A stretch of 64,000 nucleotides of DNA from Polyangiales bacterium. Lineage in GTDB: Bacteria; Myxococcota_A; Polyangia; Polyangiales; Ga0077539. Made by a program: the position numbers and the translations under genes. Of the stretch, positions 35,024-43,710 are shown piece after piece. Under the pieces are notes generated by a model that did no database searches, was not told where the DNA came from, and worked only from the letters and a program-made list of their open reading frames with translations. The stretch lies in NCBI GenBank assembly GCA_044229975.1, contig JBGARZ010000001.1:896001-960000 (forward strand). The letters run 5' to 3'. The stretch's first letter is position 1. Each line of letters opens with the position of its first letter.

Positions 35024-35209
35024 ATGCACGACGACGATCAGGACGAGGGGCTCACCACGGCGGGGGCCCGCTACCTCATCAGCGACCGCGACCTCGACGC
35101 CCTCGCGGAGGCCGAGATGGCCTTCGCGCGTTGGGAGCAGACGCGCCGCTGGTGGCTCGTCGGCTGCCTCGACGACCGGGCCGCGCTCGACAAGGCCAAC
35201 AGCGCCTGA
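35024..35209 (+). CDS. Small acidic hypothetical protein (61 aa)
   Basis: ATG after purine-rich gaagggtagag; GC3-rich codons; 20 nt upstream of the nucleotidyltransferase. Confidence 0.5.
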   Translation: MHDDDQDEGLTTAGARYLISDRDLDALAEAEMAFARWEQTRRWWLVGCLDDRAALDKANSA

Positions 35210-35229: not shown

Positions 35230-36087
35230 ATGGCCACCCGGTTGAAGGCTGGTGCTGTTCAGGCGCTGCTGCTCTCCCGTCAGCGGGAGCTGCTCCGAGA
35301 CGTGGCGCGCGAGGTCGGCGCGGAGGTGTTGTTCCTGAAGGCGGCGTGGGCAGACGCCGCGCTGTTTGGAGGGCGCGGCGATCGGGTGGGCAGCGACCTC
35401 GACGTGCTCGTCACCCCGGAGCGCTTCACCGACTACGCCAACGCGCTCGAAGCCCGCGGCTTCACCCGCTACGAGCCGGTCACCCACCGCGCGACCGTCA
35501 CCCTCGGCTCCAAGGAGTGGACCTACTCCCACCCCGGCGCGTGGATGCCCGTCGACCTGCACCGCGAGCTCGCCGAGCCGCCGTGGTTCACGTTCGATGT
35601 CGCAGCGGTGCTCTCGCGCGCCGTGGAGTGGCCCGCGGTGGGCGGCCCCATCCGCTCGCTGGGCCCTGAAGACCAGGTGCTCTACGCGGCGGTTCACTAC
35701 GCCAACCATCTCTACGAGATCGACGATCGACACGCGGGGGACATCGCCCGCCTGCTCACGTCGCACGCCGTGGACTGGTCGCTGATCTACCGCGAGGCCG
35801 ACCGCGGGGGCATGCGACTCATCGCGGAGGTCTTCGCCGAGCACCTGCGCGCACGCGGCCTCGACGTGCCCGCGCCGCCGTGGCCCGCGTCGGCGTTCAC
35901 ACGACTGCGACGCGACTGGGTCGGCCGCTGGGTCGACGTGGGCGCGACCTTCGCGCGGCGGAGTGCTGTGGGGAGGTACACCGGGCTGCTGTTGGAGCGC
36001 CCGGTGTTGAGTGATCGATGGGAGGCGCTGCCCCGTTGGGCGCTCAGGTACGCGGCCTTGCGTGCGCTCGACCGCGTCCTGCGCTGA
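35230..36087 (+). CDS. Nucleotidyltransferase family protein (NTP_transf_5-like)
   Basis: LFLKAAW...RVGSDLDVLV (DxD), VDLHREL, LGPEDQVLY..VH, DIARL, VDW. Confidence 0.85.
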   Translation: MATRLKAGAVQALLLSRQRELLRDVAREVGAEVLFLKAAWADAALFGGRGDRVGSDLDVLVTPERFTDYANALEARGFTRYEPVTHRATVTLGSKEWTYSHPGAWMPVDLHRELAEPPWFTFDVAAVLSRAVEWPAVGGPIRSLGPEDQVLYAAVHYANHLYEIDDRHAGDIARLLTSHAVDWSLIYREADRGGMRLIAEVFAEHLRARGLDVPAPPWPASAFTRLRRDWVGRWVDVGATFARRSAVGRYTGLLLERPVLSDRWEALPRWALRYAALRALDRVLR

Positions 36088-36097
36088 CCCTCCCGGG

Positions 36098-36265
36098 TCA
36101 GGTGTTGGCGAACCCGCCCTCTTCGTCACACGCGCCGGCGTTCTTCCCGCCGGAGCCCGTGTCACACGCGAGGCTATAGGTCTCCAGTGGAAGGTCTTCG
36201 ACGACGCGCGGTGCTTCGTACGGCAGGAGGGCGGAATGGTTGGGCATGGTGTTCTCGGGGGACAT
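36098..36265 (-). CDS. Putative RiPP precursor peptide (55 aa, YxxP leader, two Cys)
   Basis: GAGGAG RBS 7 nt before ATG; MSPENTMPNHSALLPYEAPRVVEDLPLETYSLACDTGSGGKNAGACDEEGGFANT; same strand as and downstream of RRE and rSAM genes. Confidence 0.8.
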   Translation of the reverse strand: MSPENTMPNHSALLPYEAPRVVEDLPLETYSLACDTGSGGKNAGACDEEGGFANT

Positions 36266-36299
36266 GGAGTGACTCCTCATGGAAGGTTGAAGCGGCTGC

Positions 36300-39200
36300 T
36301 CACCGCACGATGAACAGCGCACCAGAAGCGGTCTGGGTGAAGGCCGCGTCGACGGCTCCGTCGCTGTCGATGTCGCCCACCCACGACGTGCTGGAGATCG
36401 TGGCGGCGCTGGTGCCTGTGGGCGACACCACGAAGCGATCGGCCGTGTCGGTGGTCTGCCCCGCCCAGGAAGCGCGGCCGCGGTATGCGTAGAAGCGTGC
36501 CGCGCTGTTGAGCTGATACGCGGCGCTGCCGAGGAGGAGGTCGGCCGAGGGGGCGCCGCTCAGCAGCAGCGAGGGGCGCACCTGCGTCGGGTCGGTGATG
36601 GAGGCGATGGAGCGACCGAAGATGTCGAGCAGGGCGCCAGCGGCCGTGGTGCGAACGCTCCCGCCCGCAGCGAGACCGCCGTCGGTGCCGCCGAAGTACA
36701 GGAACACCTCGCCCGCGCCGCCAGTGGTGCCGATGTTGCCCACGGCGAAGTCGCTACGACCATCGCCGTTGATGTCGCCGACACCCGCGACGACGTTCTG
36801 ACCGTTGGCCGCGGTCGAGCCGGTCACGCTGCCGGGCACCTGACCCGGGCGGGTGAAGGTCGCGTCGGTCGCGGTGAGCGAGAGCGGGGTCGCGAGCGAC
36901 CGGCCCGCGAACACATACGCCGCCGCCGGGGTGCCCGACGCGCCGCCGCCGATGGCGAGATCTTCGAGCAGGTCGTTGCCGACCAGGCGACCCGCGCCGG
37001 CGAGGGAGATGCCGAACACCGTCGCCGTGCCGCTGTTGCGGATGGTGAGGTCGGCACCGTTGGGGGAGAGCGTGGCGGGCCAGGTGCGGCGACCGCGGAA
37101 CAACACCACCGCGCCGCCGCCCGTCGCGATGGGCGCGGCGATGGCGACGTCGTTGAGGTTGTCGACGTCGCCATCGAAGTTGCCGACGCGAGCCAGCGTG
37201 GCGCCGAGGCGGGCCGGGGCGAAGTCGCCCGTGCCACCGCCGATGGTCACGTTGGCCTCGGACGCGAGGTAGGCCATCGCAGTGCCCGTGCGCCACATGG
37301 CGGCCGGGCGGCCGAAGAAGAGGTACACGCTGCCCGCGCGGGTGCCCGACGTCGGGCCCGGCTCGCCGATGGCGATGTCACCGACGCCGTCGCCGTTGAT
37401 GTCGCCGAGCGACGCGACCACGGTGCCGAAGCGACCGTCGGACACCGAGCCGCGGAACTCGGTGAAGTTGGTCTCGGAGAGCCCGGTCGCGGAGCCGAAG
37501 TAGATGCGCGCGAAGCCGCCGGCGCTCGTGCCCTGGGTGGACGAGGCCAGGAGCACGTCCGAGATGCCGTCGCCGTTGAGGTCGAACCCACCGGAGACGG
37601 CGTTGCCGAGCAACGGCGACGCCACGGTGATCTGATCGACCACCACGTCGGGCGTGAGCGGGCCGGCCGAGACCACCGTCGCGCTCGTGTTGCCCACTGC
37701 GTCGAAGGAGCGCATCGCGAAGTAGTAGGCCCGACCGAGCTGGAGGCCGTTGATGTCAGCGGTGTTCGCAGCGCCGGGGGTGCCCGGCGTGGCCGTGATG
37801 ACGGCGAGCGTGGCGCTGGAGAAGTTGGACGCGGTGATGGCGGCCGCGGAGTAGCGAACCTCGTAGCGGCCCACCGGGCGAGTGCCGGTGCCCGAGGGGT
37901 TGGCGTCGGAGCCGTCGTTCCAGGTGAGGCGGACGATGCCCGCGCGGCGCGCCGAGCGCGGGGTCGTCGGGATGGCAGCCACGAAGTCGGTCGGTGCCGT
38001 CGGGATGGCCGTGTCGACCACCACCGTGACCGATGCCGTGCCTACGCCGCGGCCCGTGACTTCGGCGGTGGTCGCCGTGAGGTTGACGGCGTCGCCCTGC
38101 GGGAGCGTGACGCCCGAGAAGGTCACCGTGCCGCCCGCAACGGTGCTCGTCACGGCGGTGCCGCCGTTGATGCGGAGGCTCACCACCGTGCCCGCCGGGG
38201 CGTCGGAGGTGAGCGTCACCGTGGTCGTCGCCGTGGTGAAGAGGGCGCCCGCGGTGGGGGCCGTAAACGCGAGCGTCGGGGGGTTGCCGACGGTGACGGT
38301 GCACATCCCGTTGGTGGTGCTCGCGTTGCCTGCCGGGTCGGTCGCCGCCAGCCGCAACGTGGTCACGCCCGGGAAGAACTGTAGATCGGAGAAGGTGCCC
38401 GTGCCGCCCGTCATGGTCGGCGCCGTCAGCGGAATCTGCCGCGGCATGTCGCCCATGCGTTCGAGCGTGAGGTTGATGGGATAGGCGTCGCTGCTCACGA
38501 TGACGGCGGCGCGCGCAGTGCCATCCGTGCCCGGCGCCACGATGCGGTTGCAGTTGAAGATGTTGAGCGTGGGGGCCGACGAGTCGACGTAGAGCACCGA
38601 GGCCACCGAGGCGCCGCGGTCGCCCGTGGTGTCGGTCACCTGCACGCGAATGGTCGGGCCGGTGGGCGCGGGAGAGGACGGGTCGGTGCGGGTCGGCGAG
38701 GTCTCCGGCAGCGTGACGTTGGCGAAGCGGGCGATGCCGACGAAGCCCATGCCCAGCGTCGCGCAGGGGTCACCCGCCATGGTCGGGGACACCGTCGCCG
38801 TCGCGATGGGGGCCGCCACCATGTCGCGGAGGAGCTCGGCGGTGCCCGACATGCGGTCGGTGCAGGCCACCACCTCGGCCTGGAGGCCCGGCGCCGTGGT
38901 GTCGCGGTCGCGCGCCGCGTTGAGGATGGTGCCAGGGTCGGCCGCGTCGTACGCGACCGGGGCCACGATGCGCACCGACGGCAGCGCCGACTGACAGCGC
39001 ACGTTGGCGATGGTGCTGCGAGCGACGTTGCCCGCCGCGTCCTGCGTCGAGACCTCGACGGTGAAGGGAGCGCCGCCATCGGGACAGGTGACCTGCACGC
39101 ACGCGTCGGTGGTGGCCGAGGCCGGGACGTCGGCGCAGCCCGCCGGGTCGGCCGGGGTCGAGCCCATCACGTTGGCGCACACCCGGCGCCCCGCCGCGTC

Positions 39201-40100
39201 GCTGCGCGCGCACACGTTGAACTGCACGCCCGCGACCGCGGTGTTGACGTCACCCGAGAGGCCGATGGTCGCGTTGGCCATCGGGCTCTGCACGGTGAGC
39301 GTGGGCGCCACCGAGTCGACGGTGAAGCGGCCCTCGGCCGAGCGGCCCACGTTGCCCGCGCGGTTGGTGCACGTCGCGCGCGCCACGAACTCTCCGTCGG
39401 GCGCGAGCGCCACGTTGTTGAAGCGAGCGACCCCGGCCATGACGGCGGCGCGCAAGGGCGTCGCGGTGCCCGTGATGGCGAGCTCGACCTCGCGGCCGTC
39501 CTCCACGTCGGTGCCGACGGTGAAGGTCGTCGCGAAGGGCATGCCCGCGGCGGCGGTGCTGTCGGTCAGGTTGAGCGTCGAGCGCATCGGCGTCGCGATG
39601 GAGCAGCGGGGCACCGCGCAGCTGACCGAGAGCGTGGTGCGACCGCACGGCGCGCTCTCCCCGGCGACGCGCACCTCCAGCGAGGACATCGCGCCGGTGT
39701 CGAACTGCACCGCCTCGAAGCGCACCGTGGGGCCGCTCACGGTGGCGGTGGCCACGCTGCGGGTGTTGACGAAGAGCTCGAGCCGGGTGCCCACGGCCGC
39801 GTTGGTCGCGAGCTGCACCGTGTACGCGAAGCCGTTGCTGCAGTTGTTGTCGGCGTCGTCGGCGACGCCCAGCACCGCCGCGGCGGTCGGGCGCACGAAC
39901 TCGATGGACGGACAGAGCGCGCCCGCATCGTTGCCCGCGTCGTTGCCCGCATCGTTGCCAACGTCGGTCCCGGTGTCGCCGCCCACGTCGCCACCGGCGT
40001 CACCCGCGTCGCCCGCAGGGGCAGGCGGGTCGTCGGAGCAGCCCACGGCTGCGGCGGCGAGAAACGGAAGCAGCAAGCCCAAACGGATGCGATGCGCCAT
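36300..40100 (-). CDS. Large surface lipoprotein: Ig-like/FnIII domains plus C-terminal FG-GAP (integrin-alpha-like) propeller
   Basis: AVGC lipobox; DAG-repeat linker; DxAGN Ig-like motifs; YYFAMRSFDAVGN; DLNGDGISD, GDINGDGVGD, GDINGDGRSD, GDIDSDGAVD Ca-binding loops. Confidence 0.85.
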   Translation of the reverse strand: MAHRIRLGLLLPFLAAAAVGCSDDPPAPAGDAGDAGGDVGGDTGTDVGNDAGNDAGNDAGALCPSIEFVRPTAAAVLGVADDADNNCSNGFAYTVQLATNAAVGTRLELFVNTRSVATATVSGPTVRFEAVQFDTGAMSSLEVRVAGESAPCGRTTLSVSCAVPRCSIATPMRSTLNLTDSTAAAGMPFATTFTVGTDVEDGREVELAITGTATPLRAAVMAGVARFNNVALAPDGEFVARATCTNRAGNVGRSAEGRFTVDSVAPTLTVQSPMANATIGLSGDVNTAVAGVQFNVCARSDAAGRRVCANVMGSTPADPAGCADVPASATTDACVQVTCPDGGAPFTVEVSTQDAAGNVARSTIANVRCQSALPSVRIVAPVAYDAADPGTILNAARDRDTTAPGLQAEVVACTDRMSGTAELLRDMVAAPIATATVSPTMAGDPCATLGMGFVGIARFANVTLPETSPTRTDPSSPAPTGPTIRVQVTDTTGDRGASVASVLYVDSSAPTLNIFNCNRIVAPGTDGTARAAVIVSSDAYPINLTLERMGDMPRQIPLTAPTMTGGTGTFSDLQFFPGVTTLRLAATDPAGNASTTNGMCTVTVGNPPTLAFTAPTAGALFTTATTTVTLTSDAPAGTVVSLRINGGTAVTSTVAGGTVTFSGVTLPQGDAVNLTATTAEVTGRGVGTASVTVVVDTAIPTAPTDFVAAIPTTPRSARRAGIVRLTWNDGSDANPSGTGTRPVGRYEVRYSAAAITASNFSSATLAVITATPGTPGAANTADINGLQLGRAYYFAMRSFDAVGNTSATVVSAGPLTPDVVVDQITVASPLLGNAVSGGFDLNGDGISDVLLASSTQGTSAGGFARIYFGSATGLSETNFTEFRGSVSDGRFGTVVASLGDINGDGVGDIAIGEPGPTSGTRAGSVYLFFGRPAAMWRTGTAMAYLASEANVTIGGGTGDFAPARLGATLARVGNFDGDVDNLNDVAIAAPIATGGGAVVLFRGRRTWPATLSPNGADLTIRNSGTATVFGISLAGAGRLVGNDLLEDLAIGGGASGTPAAAYVFAGRSLATPLSLTATDATFTRPGQVPGSVTGSTAANGQNVVAGVGDINGDGRSDFAVGNIGTTGGAGEVFLYFGGTDGGLAAGGSVRTTAAGALLDIFGRSIASITDPTQVRPSLLLSGAPSADLLLGSAAYQLNSAARFYAYRGRASWAGQTTDTADRFVVSPTGTSAATISSTSWVGDIDSDGAVDAAFTQTASGALFIVR

Positions 40101-40153: not shown

Positions 40154-41446
40154 TCACACCCGGTCGCTCGCCGGTGTGCTGCATGGTTCAGAGGGTGACG
40201 CGTGTAAAGGTGCGCCGTCTCGCCGTCGCCGGAGGGTCACGAGCTCTCCGCCGTCGGCTTTGTTCCCGTGCGCCGGACGGAGCCACTCGAACCTCCGCGC
40301 GAGGGCCTCGTCACCCGGGCTACGCACGTCGCGCTCGGGTCGGATGACCCCGCTCGCCACGATGGAAAACGGGCCCACCGCCGGATCGCGGTCGGGGCCG
40401 CAGTCCGCCGACGGCGGGAGCACATCCAGGCCGCCGGCCGCCGCGGCATACCGAGCGCGAGCGCGGGCGCAGGCCGAGGCGTAGGGCCCCAGGTAGTCGC
40501 CGCCCTCGTGGAGCGCCGTCGCGTGGCAGCGCTGACAGGCCGGAAGCAGGTCGCAGTCCCGACAGCCGTGAATCCGCGACCAGGTCAAGCCCTCGAACAG
40601 CGCCCGCTCGGGCGCCGCATCGAGCGCCGCGGAGAGGGACTCGCGCGTGAGGTCGGCGAGGATGGATGGGGTATCTGTGCACGCTTGCAGCCGCCCGTCG
40701 GGCAGCACGACGAGGCCCGAGCGGCCGACCCCGCACGGATACTTCGCGAGCTTCTCGGCGCGCGCCGCTTCGGCATCGGCGGGCGGCGACCAGGGTTGGA
40801 GCAAGCCCTCGCGCAGCAGGTCTTCCGGGGTGACCCGAACGGCCCATGGGTCGTCCGCGCCGTCTTCGCGCATCGTGAGGTCGGTCGAGGGGTGATGCTC
40901 GCAGCCGAGCCGCAGGGCGAGGGCCTCGACGGAGCGTGTCCCCTTGAGCGAGAGCGTGGTGGCGGGCGTCTTGAGCACCACCCGCACACCGCGCTCGCGG
41001 AGGGCCGAGATGGCGCCCGCCGTGCGAACGAAGGAGCCCGGAACGCGGGTGACGGCGTCGTGCTCGGCCGCCTCTCCCGAGTAGAGGCTGATGTGGACTT
41101 CGAGCAGGCCGATGAGCGCCAGCGCGTCGGCGTAGGCCGCGTCGATGAGGAACCCATTGGTGAAGAGCCGCACCGCGAATCCACGGCCGCGCGCGTGGCG
41201 CAGGATGTCGAGCAGGTCGGGCCGCAGCGTCGCCTCGCCGCCGCTCACGTTGAGCGTGAACACCCCTGCGTCAGCGATGCCGTCGATGACTCCGCGGAGC
41301 TCGTCGAGGGACAGCTCGCCCTTCTCGCCCTGCACCTGGTAGCAGTGCTGGCAGGCGTGGTTGCAGCGGTCGGCCACCTGGAGGTGAACGCCCATGGGCC
41401 GCCCCTGCCGCGTGGCGAGCGAGCGCAGGAGGTCGGAGCCCTTCAC
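40154..41446 (-). CDS. Radical SAM/SPASM domain peptide maturase
   Basis: CNHACQHC (CxxxCxxC), SGGE, FTNG, HDAVTRVPGSF; SPASM CGVG...DGRLQAC and CxxCx5CxxCx18C. Confidence 0.93.
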   Translation of the reverse strand: MKGSDLLRSLATRQGRPMGVHLQVADRCNHACQHCYQVQGEKGELSLDELRGVIDGIADAGVFTLNVSGGEATLRPDLLDILRHARGRGFAVRLFTNGFLIDAAYADALALIGLLEVHISLYSGEAAEHDAVTRVPGSFVRTAGAISALRERGVRVVLKTPATTLSLKGTRSVEALALRLGCEHHPSTDLTMREDGADDPWAVRVTPEDLLREGLLQPWSPPADAEAARAEKLAKYPCGVGRSGLVVLPDGRLQACTDTPSILADLTRESLSAALDAAPERALFEGLTWSRIHGCRDCDLLPACQRCHATALHEGGDYLGPYASACARARARYAAAAGGLDVLPPSADCGPDRDPAVGPFSIVASGVIRPERDVRSPGDEALARRFEWLRPAHGNKADGGELVTLRRRRDGAPLHASPSEPCSTPASDRV

Positions 41447-41724
41447 GGGGCCTCCACCGCGGGGCGCAGGAGGCCGCGGGCCACGAGGTCGTCGAGGAAG
41501 GCCACCACGTCGGCGTTGGCGGTGGCCTCGTCGACCGCGAAGCGCTCGCGCACGGCGGCCACGAGCTGGTCGATGGTGGCGCCGTCGCAGCGCTCCCAGA
41601 GGAAGCTCCCGACGGCGTTGAAGAGGCGCACCCGGCTGGTGTCGAGGGAGATCACCGCCACCTGGTCGTCGTAGCGTCGCCAGACCGCATCGCGTGCGTG
41701 GTGGACGGTTCGTTGGGCGTTCAT
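41443..41724 (-). CDS. PqqD-family RiPP recognition element (RRE)
   Basis: 93 aa; LFNAVGSFLWERCDG.TIDQLV...RFAVD...DVVAFLDDLVARGLL. Confidence 0.93.
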   Translation of the reverse strand: MNAQRTVHHARDAVWRRYDDQVAVISLDTSRVRLFNAVGSFLWERCDGATIDQLVAAVRERFAVDEATANADVVAFLDDLVARGLLRPAVEAP

Positions 41725-42482
41725 GGCGGTGAGGTCGTCGGGTGGAGGGCGGTGTCGAGGGCCGCAAGATAGCCCGGCCCCCAGGGCAAGCCTAGCGTCA
41801 AAGCCCGCACGCGGCCGCCCAACGAGAGGGCGACGCCCGCCCGGACTCGTGCGTGGGGGTCCTCTCCCCGGGGGCGCGTCACATGAGACATCAGGCGCAT
41901 CGTTGCCGTAGAGCCCGGCATCCATTCAACCGTGGCCAGGGAATGGCGATGGACGAAGGCCAGGGCCACGAGCGGCGAGCGATCGGGCGCCTCCAGCTCG
42001 GGCGCGGCCTCGCGGTTGAACGGCATCGCGCGCACCCTCATCGACGAAGGCCCGTCGCCCCCTTCGACGAGCACCGAGTTGGACGCGAAGGCCCGCTCGC
42101 CCGCCGCGCGCACGGCGGTGGTCTTGCCCACCCCGGGTGCGGCGATCAGCAGCGCGACCCCGCCCTCGACCCGCACCGCCCCGGCGTGCAGGAGGAAGCA
42201 CCCGTGGAGGGGCGCGTCGCGCGCGACCAGCTCGCACACCGCGGCCAGCCACGGTGCGTGCCGGGCGGGGTCATCGATGATGGTGAGCTGATCGTGGTCA
42301 GGGTGCGCGGTGAGCGCGAAGCCGACCTCGGCATCGGTGGGGAGCGTGGGCGCCAACGAGACCGTCACGCGGCGCGCATCGACCGGTGGGTCGCAGAGCC
42401 ACGGTCGCAGAAGCGGATGGGGCGGCGGCCCTTCGAGGGCGAGCGCAACGGGACCGAAGCGCAAGCCGTAGGCAGCGCTCAC
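41721..42482 (-). CDS. HPr-kinase-related P-loop protein B (lacks the DD motif)
   Basis: LLHAGAV...LLIAAPGVGKTT; FASNS where family members carry LSDD. Confidence 0.75.
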   Translation of the reverse strand: MSAAYGLRFGPVALALEGPPPHPLLRPWLCDPPVDARRVTVSLAPTLPTDAEVGFALTAHPDHDQLTIIDDPARHAPWLAAVCELVARDAPLHGCFLLHAGAVRVEGGVALLIAAPGVGKTTAVRAAGERAFASNSVLVEGGDGPSSMRVRAMPFNREAAPELEAPDRSPLVALAFVHRHSLATVEWMPGSTATMRLMSHVTRPRGEDPHARVRAGVALSLGGRVRALTLGLPWGPGYLAALDTALHPTTSPP

Positions 42483-43318
42483 GCGAGCCAGCGGTCGAGC
42501 AGCGGCAGCACCGGCGCCTCGCGCGGCAGGGCCAGCGTCACACACGGAACGGCGCCGACGAGGTGATGCGCGTGGTCGAGCAGCGACGCGGCCGCGGGGT
42601 CGCCCTGCGCGAACCACACCATCGACTGGAGCGCGTCGGCGAAGGCGGCCGACGGGGAGCACGCGCCGACCGCGAGCGTGTCGGCCTTGCGGAGAAACAC
42701 CAGCGCCCGCAGACGCGCCCGACGCGGGACCGTGGGTCGTCGCCACTCGCCGACGAAGGGCAGCGAGAGGGCGTCCCACCCATCGGCCGTGCGACGGATG
42801 GCGACGAGGTCGTCGGACAGAACGTGGGCCTCGGGGAGCTTGCGCGCGGTGGTGGTCTTGCCGCCGCCCGAGCGGGCGATGAAGAGCACCGCCCCGCGCT
42901 CGTCGGCGTAGCCGCAGGCGTGGACCATCGCTCCCTGGCGGGACGGGAGCTCGGTCGCAAGCTGGAGGCGCAGGGGCGTGTCGATGGGCGTGACGTCGTC
43001 CATGGGGACGTCGGTGTGGACGGTCGGACGCACGAGCGCTGTCGCGCGATGTCGACCCAGATGGACACGCGTCTCGCCGTCGGGTCGGAGGAAGCGCAGC
43101 GCGCCGTCGGGCTCGCGCCGCACGTCGACCCCCGGGAAGCGGTTGAGCACCGGCTCCGGCAGCGACCACGCGGGGTCGACGGTGATGTCGAGGTGCAGGT
43201 CGGGCGCCGCGCCGTCGTCGAGCGCGACGTAGCGACCGAAGCGCAGGTCGGCGTGACCCTCGTGGATGGGCCCGGTGGTGGCGACGGCGACGCGCAGCCC
43301 GGCGATGTCGAGGATCAC
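42479..43318 (-). CDS. HPr-kinase-related P-loop protein A
   Basis: MVHACG...LFIARSGGGKTT, VLSDDLVAI, LPFVGE. Confidence 0.82.
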   Translation of the reverse strand: MILDIAGLRVAVATTGPIHEGHADLRFGRYVALDDGAAPDLHLDITVDPAWSLPEPVLNRFPGVDVRREPDGALRFLRPDGETRVHLGRHRATALVRPTVHTDVPMDDVTPIDTPLRLQLATELPSRQGAMVHACGYADERGAVLFIARSGGGKTTTARKLPEAHVLSDDLVAIRRTADGWDALSLPFVGEWRRPTVPRRARLRALVFLRKADTLAVGACSPSAAFADALQSMVWFAQGDPAAASLLDHAHHLVGAVPCVTLALPREAPVLPLLDRWLA

Positions 43319-43710
43319 GCGAACACCCCACGCAGCGCAGCGAGCGCGACACGACCGAGGGCCCGCAGCTCACGACGACGCGGCCACCGAAGCGAGAGCG
43401 GTCGTTGCTCGACCACGGCCGCGCGACCGAGCACGTCGCCCCAGGACACGGCACCGTCATCGCGCGACAGGGCATCACCGCGGCAGGTCGGCCCCGCGGG
43501 CCCCAGGGAGGCGACCCGATGCACCACGAGGGCGCCTCCGCGGGAGTAGGCGATGACCTCGCCGACGCGGACGGCGCGCGGGTCGCACGGGGTCACCAGC
43601 ACGCTCGCCCCGTCGCGGACGGTCGGCCACATGCTCGCGCCGCGAACGACCCAACGGGTGGGGCGGCCTTCGCGGAGAGAGTCGACGATCACGCGTTCGG
43701 CGAGGCCCAT
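43315..43710 (-). CDS. S24/S26-family serine peptidase
   Basis: VRGASMWPTVRDG, GEVIAY, LVVHRV, RGDA...D, VLGR; no TM anchor apparent. Confidence 0.85.
   Translation of the reverse strand: MGLAERVIVDSLREGRPTRWVVRGASMWPTVRDGASVLVTPCDPRAVRVGEVIAYSRGGALVVHRVASLGPAGPTCRGDALSRDDGAVSWGDVLGRAAVVEQRPLSLRWPRRRELRALGRVALAALRGVFA

Follow-up and report, generated by a model that had tools for sequence, protein, structure and literature searches.

The 64,000-nucleotide stretch of Polyangiales DNA that was analysed (the window) carries on its minus strand a 55-codon gene, at 36265-36098, whose product is almost certainly, to judge from its leader and its neighbours, the RRE-bound precursor peptide of the adjacent enzyme cassette. 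We infer the following maturation scheme, which as a whole we rate somewhat better than even: the leader would be held by the RRE, thioethers would be formed to non-acidic residues by a radical SAM enzyme (rSAM), Thr55 would be phosphorylated and the leader would be cut off after Thr29. Part of an earlier, sequence-only reading of the same DNA stands, namely the RRE precursor with a kinase site at its terminal Thr; the ranthipeptide linkage of Cys to Asp and the kinase sites on Tyr and internal Ser/Thr do not.

The precursor gene

The ORF (36098..36265, minus strand) encodes the 55-residue peptide MSPENTMPNHSALLPYEAPRVVEDLPLETYSLACDTGSGGKNAGACDEEGGFANT and has a second possible ATG at codon 7 (36247). 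All sequence features named in the earlier reading, which left out the strand, are present: the Shine-Dalgarno sequence GAGGAG (36273..36278, minus strand) 7 nt ahead of the ATG, the leader ...LPYEAPRVVEDLPLET, the C-x11-C pattern with an Asp after each Cys, and the C-terminal Thr. The gene is single-copy in the genome and has a GC3 of 0.82 on the minus strand, and a purine-rich SD-like stretch precedes the start codon in all 16 relatives inspected. Purifying selection is shown by the 19 codons from Tyr16 to Cys34, of which 8-10 differ in each of five close relatives (L001, L002, L003, L049 and L050): all differences are synonymous and the number of amino-acid changes is 0. The bare motif YxxPx[VIL] has 1160 occurrences in the six frames of the 10 Mb genome; the full family pattern occurs once, at 36265-36098 only.

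The ORF is a genuine gene, beyond chance. It is short, lies in a GC-rich genome, is unmatched in Pfam and NCBIfam and comes with no direct evidence of expression, all of which would suit a frame that is open by chance between two convergent genes; this reading, to which we give practically no weight, is refuted by the synonymous-only leader changes and the single occurrence of the family pattern, and it runs against the conserved SD and stop, the 727 homologues and the fixed place of the gene in cassettes of differing gene order. A soil metatranscriptome (one RNA run, a small share of it) gave one 205-nt contig with 13 differences, covering 36222-36426 (the RBS and the first 14 codons); this contig is from a relative, is strandless, could be DNA and is no evidence of expression. 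Promoter-like or terminator-like sites were not seen at 35900-36500.

The precursor family

Family searches gave sets of 43 representatives (two long proteins, of 580 and 2160 aa, left out), 727 proteins (profile search) and 187 proteins. The 293 distinct sequences that were analysed were drawn from the listed matches (best 120 of the 727 and best 120 of the 187), and seven of them, with one Cys, adjacent Cys or long read-through tails, were set aside for the position analysis, which leaves 286. A six-sequence profile matched in 21 of 401 genomes of the phylum, this genome included. Of the 20 other matches, 18 look like family members in cassettes and two were dropped: G400, with no cassette in its 20 kb, and G166, with the match inside a longer frame. 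The peptide and 22 homologues have no family match in Pfam or NCBIfam, a profile of 12 homologues found no match among PDB chains up to E 10, the LppA leader included, and the protein atlas returned unnamed clusters only (at 0.90-0.91). At P0005, P0008, P0016, P0023, P0025, P0031 and L076 the usual terminal Gly-Ser is read through into an unrelated tail; these are either stop-loss alleles or assembly errors.

The peptides share fixed anchors around hypervariable loops. Among the matches listed, YxxP-x14-C is found in 293/293, with YxxP invariant and the first Cys (Cys1) fixed 18 residues from the Tyr; here the RRE-binding motif YxxPx[V/I], as defined in PMC13381572, reads YEAPRV (Tyr16-Val21; 36203..36220, minus strand). 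Also among the matches listed, at least two Cys are present in 291/293, a Glu stands six residues before Cys1, as [LF]-E, in 292/293, Ala or Ser stands three before Cys1 in 292/293, and the residue just before Cys1 is Ala, Ser, Val, Thr or Gly in 289/293. In the position analysis of the same listed matches, [FLMIV]-E occupies its fixed place in 286/286, mostly followed by Thr or Ala, and 135 of the 286 have exactly FET or LET. At position +3 after this ET site the peptide has Leu, and the listed matches have Leu in 175, Thr in 72, Ala in 24, Val in 16 and Ser in 2 of 293.

Loci chosen by the radical SAM enzyme

The 293 sequences were gathered by likeness to the peptide, so that their leader counts are partly circular, and we therefore took as a second sample 20 loci chosen by the rSAM only, from the 78 genomes that bear the cassette rSAM among 201 sampled genomes of the order. 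These enzyme-anchored loci contained: the RRE (20), a kinase (19), a recognisable precursor (19), the S26 peptidase (15), the FG-GAP gene (13) and, within 20 kb, the PF14907 transferase (1). Two Cys are found in 17 of the 19 peptides, a terminal Ser/Thr in 11 and a Ser/Thr within the last three residues in 16, a Lys in 8 and an Asp after Cys1 in 1; some rSAM-linked peptides have Ala, Val, Leu, Pro or Gln as their last residue. Ala or Ser stands three before Cys1 in 14 of the 17 that have Cys1 in register; this -3 residue may also be Cys, Gln or Val, and the -1 residue Phe, Pro or Gln. These counts mark out the leader and the cysteines as core features; a hydroxyl residue usually stands at the terminus, and the Lys may be absent.

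Conservation near homologous rSAMs, which the earlier reading had set as a check, was borne out: the peptide lies beside 6 of 8 rSAM homologues in a first sample and at 19 of the 20 enzyme-anchored loci, the second Cys (Cys2) being kept in 17 of these 19. The other two homologues of the first sample comprise one with a different, one-Cys YxxP peptide and one at a contig edge. The cultured Chondromyces apiculatus (L007:11280-11474) also has this set of enzymes, together with a divergent precursor of YxxP leader and single C-terminal Cys, and one-Cys peptides also occur in L074 and L080; the C. apiculatus cassette is a possible experimental entry point. A 4 Mb genome (G424) has three rSAM matches of the family, and each of its two fetched loci has a precursor of its own, the FG-GAP gene being present in one and absent from the other.

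Layout of the cassette

On the minus strand the gene order is: i) a soluble S26/archaeal-type signal peptidase homologue (43315..43710; Ser26, His64 and Asp85; TIGR02228 E 2e-9, below cut-off); ii) an HprK-like kinase (kinase 1; 42479..43318) with His, Walker A and Ser-Asp-Asp motifs; iii) a second HprK-like P-loop protein (kinase 2; 41721..42482), in which Ser-Asn replaces the Asp-Asp metal motif; iv) a stand-alone PqqD/RRE protein of 93 aa (41443..41724; PF05402 E 9e-18); v) a radical SAM/SPASM enzyme of 430 aa (40154..41446) with CxxxCxxC and seven SPASM-region Cys; vi) a predicted lipoprotein of 1266 aa (36300..40100) with Ig-like domains and a C-terminal FG-GAP propeller (Pfam, model and Foldseek); and vii) the peptide. 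The stops and starts of the first five genes overlap. Beyond Pfam domain matches, none of the cassette proteins reached the NCBIfam cut-off of a named system. A conserved exporter was not seen among 15 window proteins and 45 neighbour proteins; an unrelated-looking ABC ATPase lies beside two loci.

Convergent with the peptide gene lies an NTP_transf_5 (PF14907) transferase gene (35230..36087, plus strand, start uncertain; E 6e-25), whose DxD is invariant (15/15). A PF14907 gene elsewhere in the genome was considered as proof of linkage, since all 10 cassette genomes examined have one, and was rejected: 9/10 control genomes without the rSAM have one as well, so that its presence elsewhere in the genome is not specific. 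Just upstream of the transferase gene, at 35024-35209 (plus strand), a 61-aa ORF has a conserved start, SD-like stretch and stop and is 89-97% identical in six relatives, against 67-68% for the transferase; its changes fall mostly in third codon positions and it is without a match in Pfam and the atlas. It is likely a real small gene, confined to close relatives so far. A protein with tandem cNMP-binding domains is encoded directly upstream of the cassette in L008, L040, L041 and L043. Polysaccharide export and glycosyltransferase genes occur within ~10 kb of the cassette at L034:16788-19978 and L043:16477-18173 and are not general; they echo the capsule-locus setting reported for LPP (linear polyphosphorylated peptides).

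Leader recognition and cleavage

The best matches of the PqqD/RRE profile are TbiB1 and LppB, and Asn35 and Asp71 of the RRE, kept in 46/47 and 47/47, align with N33/D70 of LppB, which grip the YxxP leader in the LppB-LppA crystal structure. The RRE-type precursor proposed by the sequence-only reading is upheld by these gripping residues in the adjoining PqqD protein, together with the YxxP of all 293 listed matches.

In the S26 peptidase a Ser or Cys nucleophile is found in 39/40, a His in 40/40 and a later Asp in 32/40, residues that were equated with LppS S29/H68/D93 from their motifs and spacing and not from a direct alignment; at eight loci (L035-L038, L042 and L045-L047) Cys replaces the catalytic Ser. 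LppS needs F-3, E-2 and T-1 (PMC13381572). By analogy with LppS, which cuts after F-E-T, the S26 peptidase would cut the leader after Leu27-Glu28-Thr29 (36179..36187, minus strand), the predicted recognition site. The match between this leader end and the LPP peptidase motif was overlooked in the earlier reading, as was the common Lys between the Cys. We consider it fairly probable that this cut would release a 26-residue core with an unmodified monoisotopic mass of 2494.0; the distance from the Tyr to the cut would then be two residues shorter than in LPP.

Classical signal peptidases follow a -3/-1 (small-x-small) rule. If the S26 enzyme of the same cassette followed it too, the cut would fall between Ala33 and Cys34 and give a 22-residue core with an N-terminal Cys and an unmodified mass of 2059.8 Da, and the Ala/Ser three before Cys1 would be a protease determinant instead of a thioether acceptor, only the cleavage step being affected. 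The fixed Cys1 and the small residues at -3 (292/293) and -1 (289/293) among the matches listed agree with this. We nevertheless find it unlikely, as the enzyme-anchored peptides also have Cys, Gln or Val at -3 and Phe, Pro or Gln at -1, the invariant Glu is best explained as the P2 residue of an F-E-T-type cut, and the sole tested RiPP enzyme of the family cleaves behind F-E-T regardless of core residues 1-5 (PMC13381572). Cleavage after Thr29 is kept as the preferred reading.

Phosphorylation of the C-terminus

PsmK phosphorylates a terminal Ser and needs its Asp-Asp, and the addition of a hexose depends on PsmN (PMC6993621). Kinase 1, which has Ser-Asp-Asp, would modify Thr55 (36101..36103, minus strand) in the way in which PadeK and PsmK modify a terminal Ser, and we regard (poly)phosphorylation of Thr55 by this kinase as likely. 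The terminal Thr is the one proposed kinase site of the earlier reading that held: among the matches listed, 286/293 end in Ser (258) or Thr (28), as do 11 of the 19 enzyme-anchored peptides. Tyr and internal Ser/Thr, put forward alongside it, fell away, since a Tyr after the leader motif occurs in 28 of the 286 listed matches analysed and no internal Ser/Thr position is fixed among them. The PF14907 protein may in turn add a sugar or nucleotide onto the phosphate of Thr55, compare PsmN; we put this step at slightly below an even chance.

In kinase 2 and its 12 orthologues the last residue of the expected acidic pair is Asn. Given that PsmK needs its Asp-Asp, kinase 2 probably does not function as a kinase of this type; it is likely to serve as a non-catalytic partner or to carry out some other activity. 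Some kinases of the family have x-Asp-Arg/His/Lys instead of Ser-Asp-Asp/Glu (L040, L041, L043, L062, L063, L067, L069-L071, L075-L077 and L079-L081). Most peptides that do not end in Ser/Thr belong to this group, in which the site specificity may have shifted.

The radical SAM enzyme and the cysteines

The SAM-cluster motif and C237, C255 and C306 of the rSAM are invariant (46/46). C294, C297, C303 and C325 are lost in one clade, where C237, C255 and C306 are the only SPASM-region Cys left, and no conserved fourth Cys lies upstream. Three invariant Cys and no fourth fit, as an assignment that we infer, a three-ligand cluster with an open site, presumably like that of CteB/SkfB. The twitch-like clade without four of the seven SPASM-region Cys comprises L035-L038, L042, L045-L047, L064-L066, L068, L072, L073 and L078, and includes the eight loci with a Cys nucleophile in the S26 peptidase. 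Among solved sequences the sactisynthase SkfB (E 9e-35, PDB 6efn) comes nearest, followed by PqqE, BlsE and CteB; with a model of pLDDT 86, the fold search ranks BlsE (top), PqqE, SkfB and SuiB alike. PqqE and the decarboxylase BlsE reach equal or higher scores in this search, so that likeness of sequence and fold leaves the reaction unfixed.

In the preferred scheme the rSAM would bind the peptide Cys at a putative open iron site of an auxiliary Fe-S cluster and form thioethers, which we hold to be probable. The nature of the acceptors is a more tentative matter: they would be backbone (alpha/beta) carbons of non-acidic residues, most simply Ser31 for Cys34, giving a four-residue ring in the [AS]-x-x-C segment Ser31-Leu-Ala-Cys34 (36164..36175, minus strand; the candidate cut site of the small-x-small alternative), and for Cys46 a residue, usually a Lys, that lies 5-7 positions earlier; this exact pattern we rate below even odds. 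Sactionine rings of four residues occur in streptosactin (PMC9389541). Here the Lys is Lys41 (Lys41...Cys46; 36128..36145, minus strand); among the matches listed, a Lys lies between the Cys in 248 of 291 cores and 5-7 residues before Cys2 in 227. No position is fixed relative to Cys2 among the 286 listed matches analysed, the best being Lys at -5 (29% weighted), and the spacing of the Cys is 4-15, plus one adjacent pair, in the 291 listed cores. An invariant Lys was considered and rejected, as it was found in 177/180 at first, then in 71/111 of more distant homologues and in 8/19 enzyme-anchored peptides; since the Lys is not invariant, Lys-specific chemistry is not favoured.

The sequence-only reading had proposed that the two Cys are thioether donors, each linked to the side chain of Asp (or Thr) as in ranthipeptides. 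The conservation of the Cys (291/293 among the matches listed) speaks for the donors and the linkage to Asp has to be given up. Asp does follow both Cys here, Asp or Glu often does so in the closest relatives, and a SPASM rSAM is combined with an RRE; among the listed cores, however, Asp follows Cys1 in 21/291 and Cys2 in 25/291 (6/55 and 9/55 after de-replication at 60% identity), 161/291 are without any Asp or Glu and the Cys-Cys spacing varies, while relatives even 78-82% identical have Glu for Asp35. The enzyme points the same way: CteB matches it far more weakly than SkfB, the residues after C255 are Thr/Val/Ser then Gln/Asp, as against His-Gln in CteB, and the position of CteB His363 holds His in 1/46 (Thr 23, Val 15, Ser 5), in a comparison that covered three of the six profile positions of the CteB catalytic site. 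A ranthipeptide linkage to the side chain of Asp (or Thr) is very improbable.

More weight, though still a minor share, goes to the explanation that the cysteines are not thioether donors at all, being free, in a disulfide or in a metal site, and that the rSAM performs other chemistry, e.g. oxidative decarboxylation of a (phospho)Ser/Thr C-terminus or a C-C/C-N link at Lys. The top NCBIfam matches of the rSAM include the decarboxylating enzymes NirJ, AhbD and mycofactocin maturase, all far below cut-off, the decarboxylase BlsE is the top fold match, and a disulfide loop would suit a Cys-Cys spacing that varies and a Cys2 that lacks a fixed acceptor. On the other hand, thiol binding accords with the three-Cys pattern of the cluster that is retained, the Lys is missing between the Cys in 43/291 of the listed cores and in 11/19 enzyme-anchored peptides, and some peptides that end in Ala, Val, Leu, Pro or Gln keep the rSAM. 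We continue to prefer thioether formation.

The FG-GAP lipoprotein

The N-terminus of the 1266-aa protein we take, from its lipobox motif, to be of lipoprotein type. Its last 452 residues form, in a model of pLDDT 87, an integrin-alpha-like propeller, and all listed Foldseek matches of this FG-GAP domain are integrins (best E 3.5e-15). The gene lies between those of the rSAM and the peptide, 35 nt upstream of the latter here, and its presence in the cassette at 13/20 enzyme-anchored loci extends across many families. Where the rSAM has both auxiliary clusters, most loci contain it, against 0/15 in the clade missing one; these are two clades and not independent events. The lipoprotein was also considered as a second substrate of the cassette and is not an obvious one, as the YxxP leader and [LF]E-x-x-[AS]xxC are absent from it and from one homologue.

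We take the product to be, probably, a peptide associated with the cell surface and not an antibiotic. A speculative and rather unlikely extension is that the cross-linked, phospho-glycosylated peptide would serve the integrin-alpha-like lipoprotein as its dedicated ligand or as a small subunit, a surface tag for adhesion or kin recognition. The presence of the FG-GAP gene in 13/20 loci, its position adjoining the peptide gene and the fixed anchors around hypervariable loops agree with such a role; the 15/15 loci without it, in the clade whose rSAM no longer has the second auxiliary cluster, and the lack of an evident exporter (among the window and neighbour proteins above) speak against it. 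If true, a sequence-variable tag made as a RiPP would be read by a bacterial integrin-like propeller in myxobacteria, and if the peptide serves the lipoprotein, this would suggest a cell-surface function for the whole phosphopeptide group.

Comparison with known systems

The closest known system is the LPP pathway of Bacillota, described in 2026 with LppA, LppB, LppK, LppS, LppD and LppN (PMC13381572). That source reports a YxxP leader, RRE-dependent cleavage after F-E-T by the SipW-like LppS (S29/H68/D93), an HprK-like kinase and an NTP transferase; its authors report that they detected neither the final product nor any activity of the transferase. The cassette shares with it the YxxP leader with an [F/L]-E-T-like end and a single locus that combines a stand-alone RRE with the same Asn/Asp contacts, a SipW-type S26 enzyme with Ser-His-Asp, an HprK-like kinase and an NTP transferase, without a lasso cyclase. 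It differs by the radical SAM/SPASM enzyme and the two conserved Cys (the word 'radical' occurs 0 times in the main text of PMC13381572), by the FG-GAP lipoprotein gene embedded in it, by its host (Myxococcota versus Bacillota) and by the MsbA-like exporter, which LPP has and which was not seen here among the 15 window and 45 neighbour proteins. The phosphorylation site differs as well: LppK phosphorylates Ser at core +3 and does not accept S3T (PMC13381572), whereas +3 is here Leu/Thr/Ala/Val and the conserved hydroxyl is at the C-terminus.

With the phosphorylated and phosphoglycosylated lasso peptides (paeninodin, PadeK; pseudomycoidin, PsmK/PsmN; PMC6993621) the cassette has in common an Asp-Asp HprK-like kinase, a nucleotidyltransferase, a YxxP-type leader and a precursor that ends in a hydroxyl residue. 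In contrast to these, it has no lasso cyclase or B2 peptidase among the annotated neighbours, an S26 peptidase and an rSAM being present instead, and a terminal Thr is tolerated (28/293 among the matches listed). With sactipeptides (streptosactin GggB, QmpB; SkfB; PMC9389541) it shares a SPASM/twitch rSAM nearest SkfB, two Cys and a candidate [AS]-x-x-C ring, and it differs by the stand-alone RRE, kinase, S26 peptidase and transferase and by the lack of a fixed acceptor for Cys2. Ranthipeptides and QhpD/QhpC (PMC7876137, PMC10288494) likewise combine an rSAM with a leader-bearing Cys peptide; a conserved Asp/Glu acceptor (or Asn/Thr at a fixed distance), a His after the cluster Cys, a conserved Trp and a subtilisin-type peptidase are all missing here. 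As described in the same two papers, the crosslinked peptide of the qhp operon (quinohemoprotein amine dehydrogenase) becomes a subunit of large partner proteins, an arrangement that is, by analogy, a possible parallel to the FG-GAP lipoprotein.

GeoRSP (TIGR04302/04303) and SynChlorMet (TIGR04248-04251) also pair a PqqD protein with an rSAM/SPASM enzyme, SynChlorMet with the kinase-like ScmC in addition, and they gave the best or near-best NCBIfam matches. All stay below cut-off, GeoRSP with 95.6 vs 400 bits (TIGR04303) and 38.9 vs 100 bits (TIGR04302), and SynChlorMet with 13 vs 125 (ScmC), 36 vs 100 (ScmD), 53 vs 400 (ScmE) and 49 vs 400 bits (ScmF); SynChlorMet moreover has two rSAMs, as against one in this locus. 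Judged by its sequence, the cassette is not LPP and not a lasso peptide system; the features that were compared set it apart from ranthipeptide systems, and the scores set it apart from GeoRSP and SynChlorMet.

A literature search, which covered few subscription papers, found no published description of an rSAM-bearing cassette of this kind. The spreadsheet of PMC10288494 holds none of four precursor motifs or two taxon names, and word searches of two RRE papers (PMC12710340 and PMC7470986) did not find the cassette. Yet its rSAM is present in 78/201 sampled genomes of the order.

The cassette joins the LPP module (S26 leader peptidase, HprK kinase and PF14907 transferase) to radical-SAM chemistry, and it would work like a hybrid of the phosphorylation module of LPP/paeninodin and a sactipeptide-type rSAM. 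Comprising an RRE, four small cytoplasmic enzymes and a 55-residue substrate whose predicted phosphorylation site differs from that of LPP, it offers a simple system in which to study the role of PF14907 and the ring made by the rSAM.
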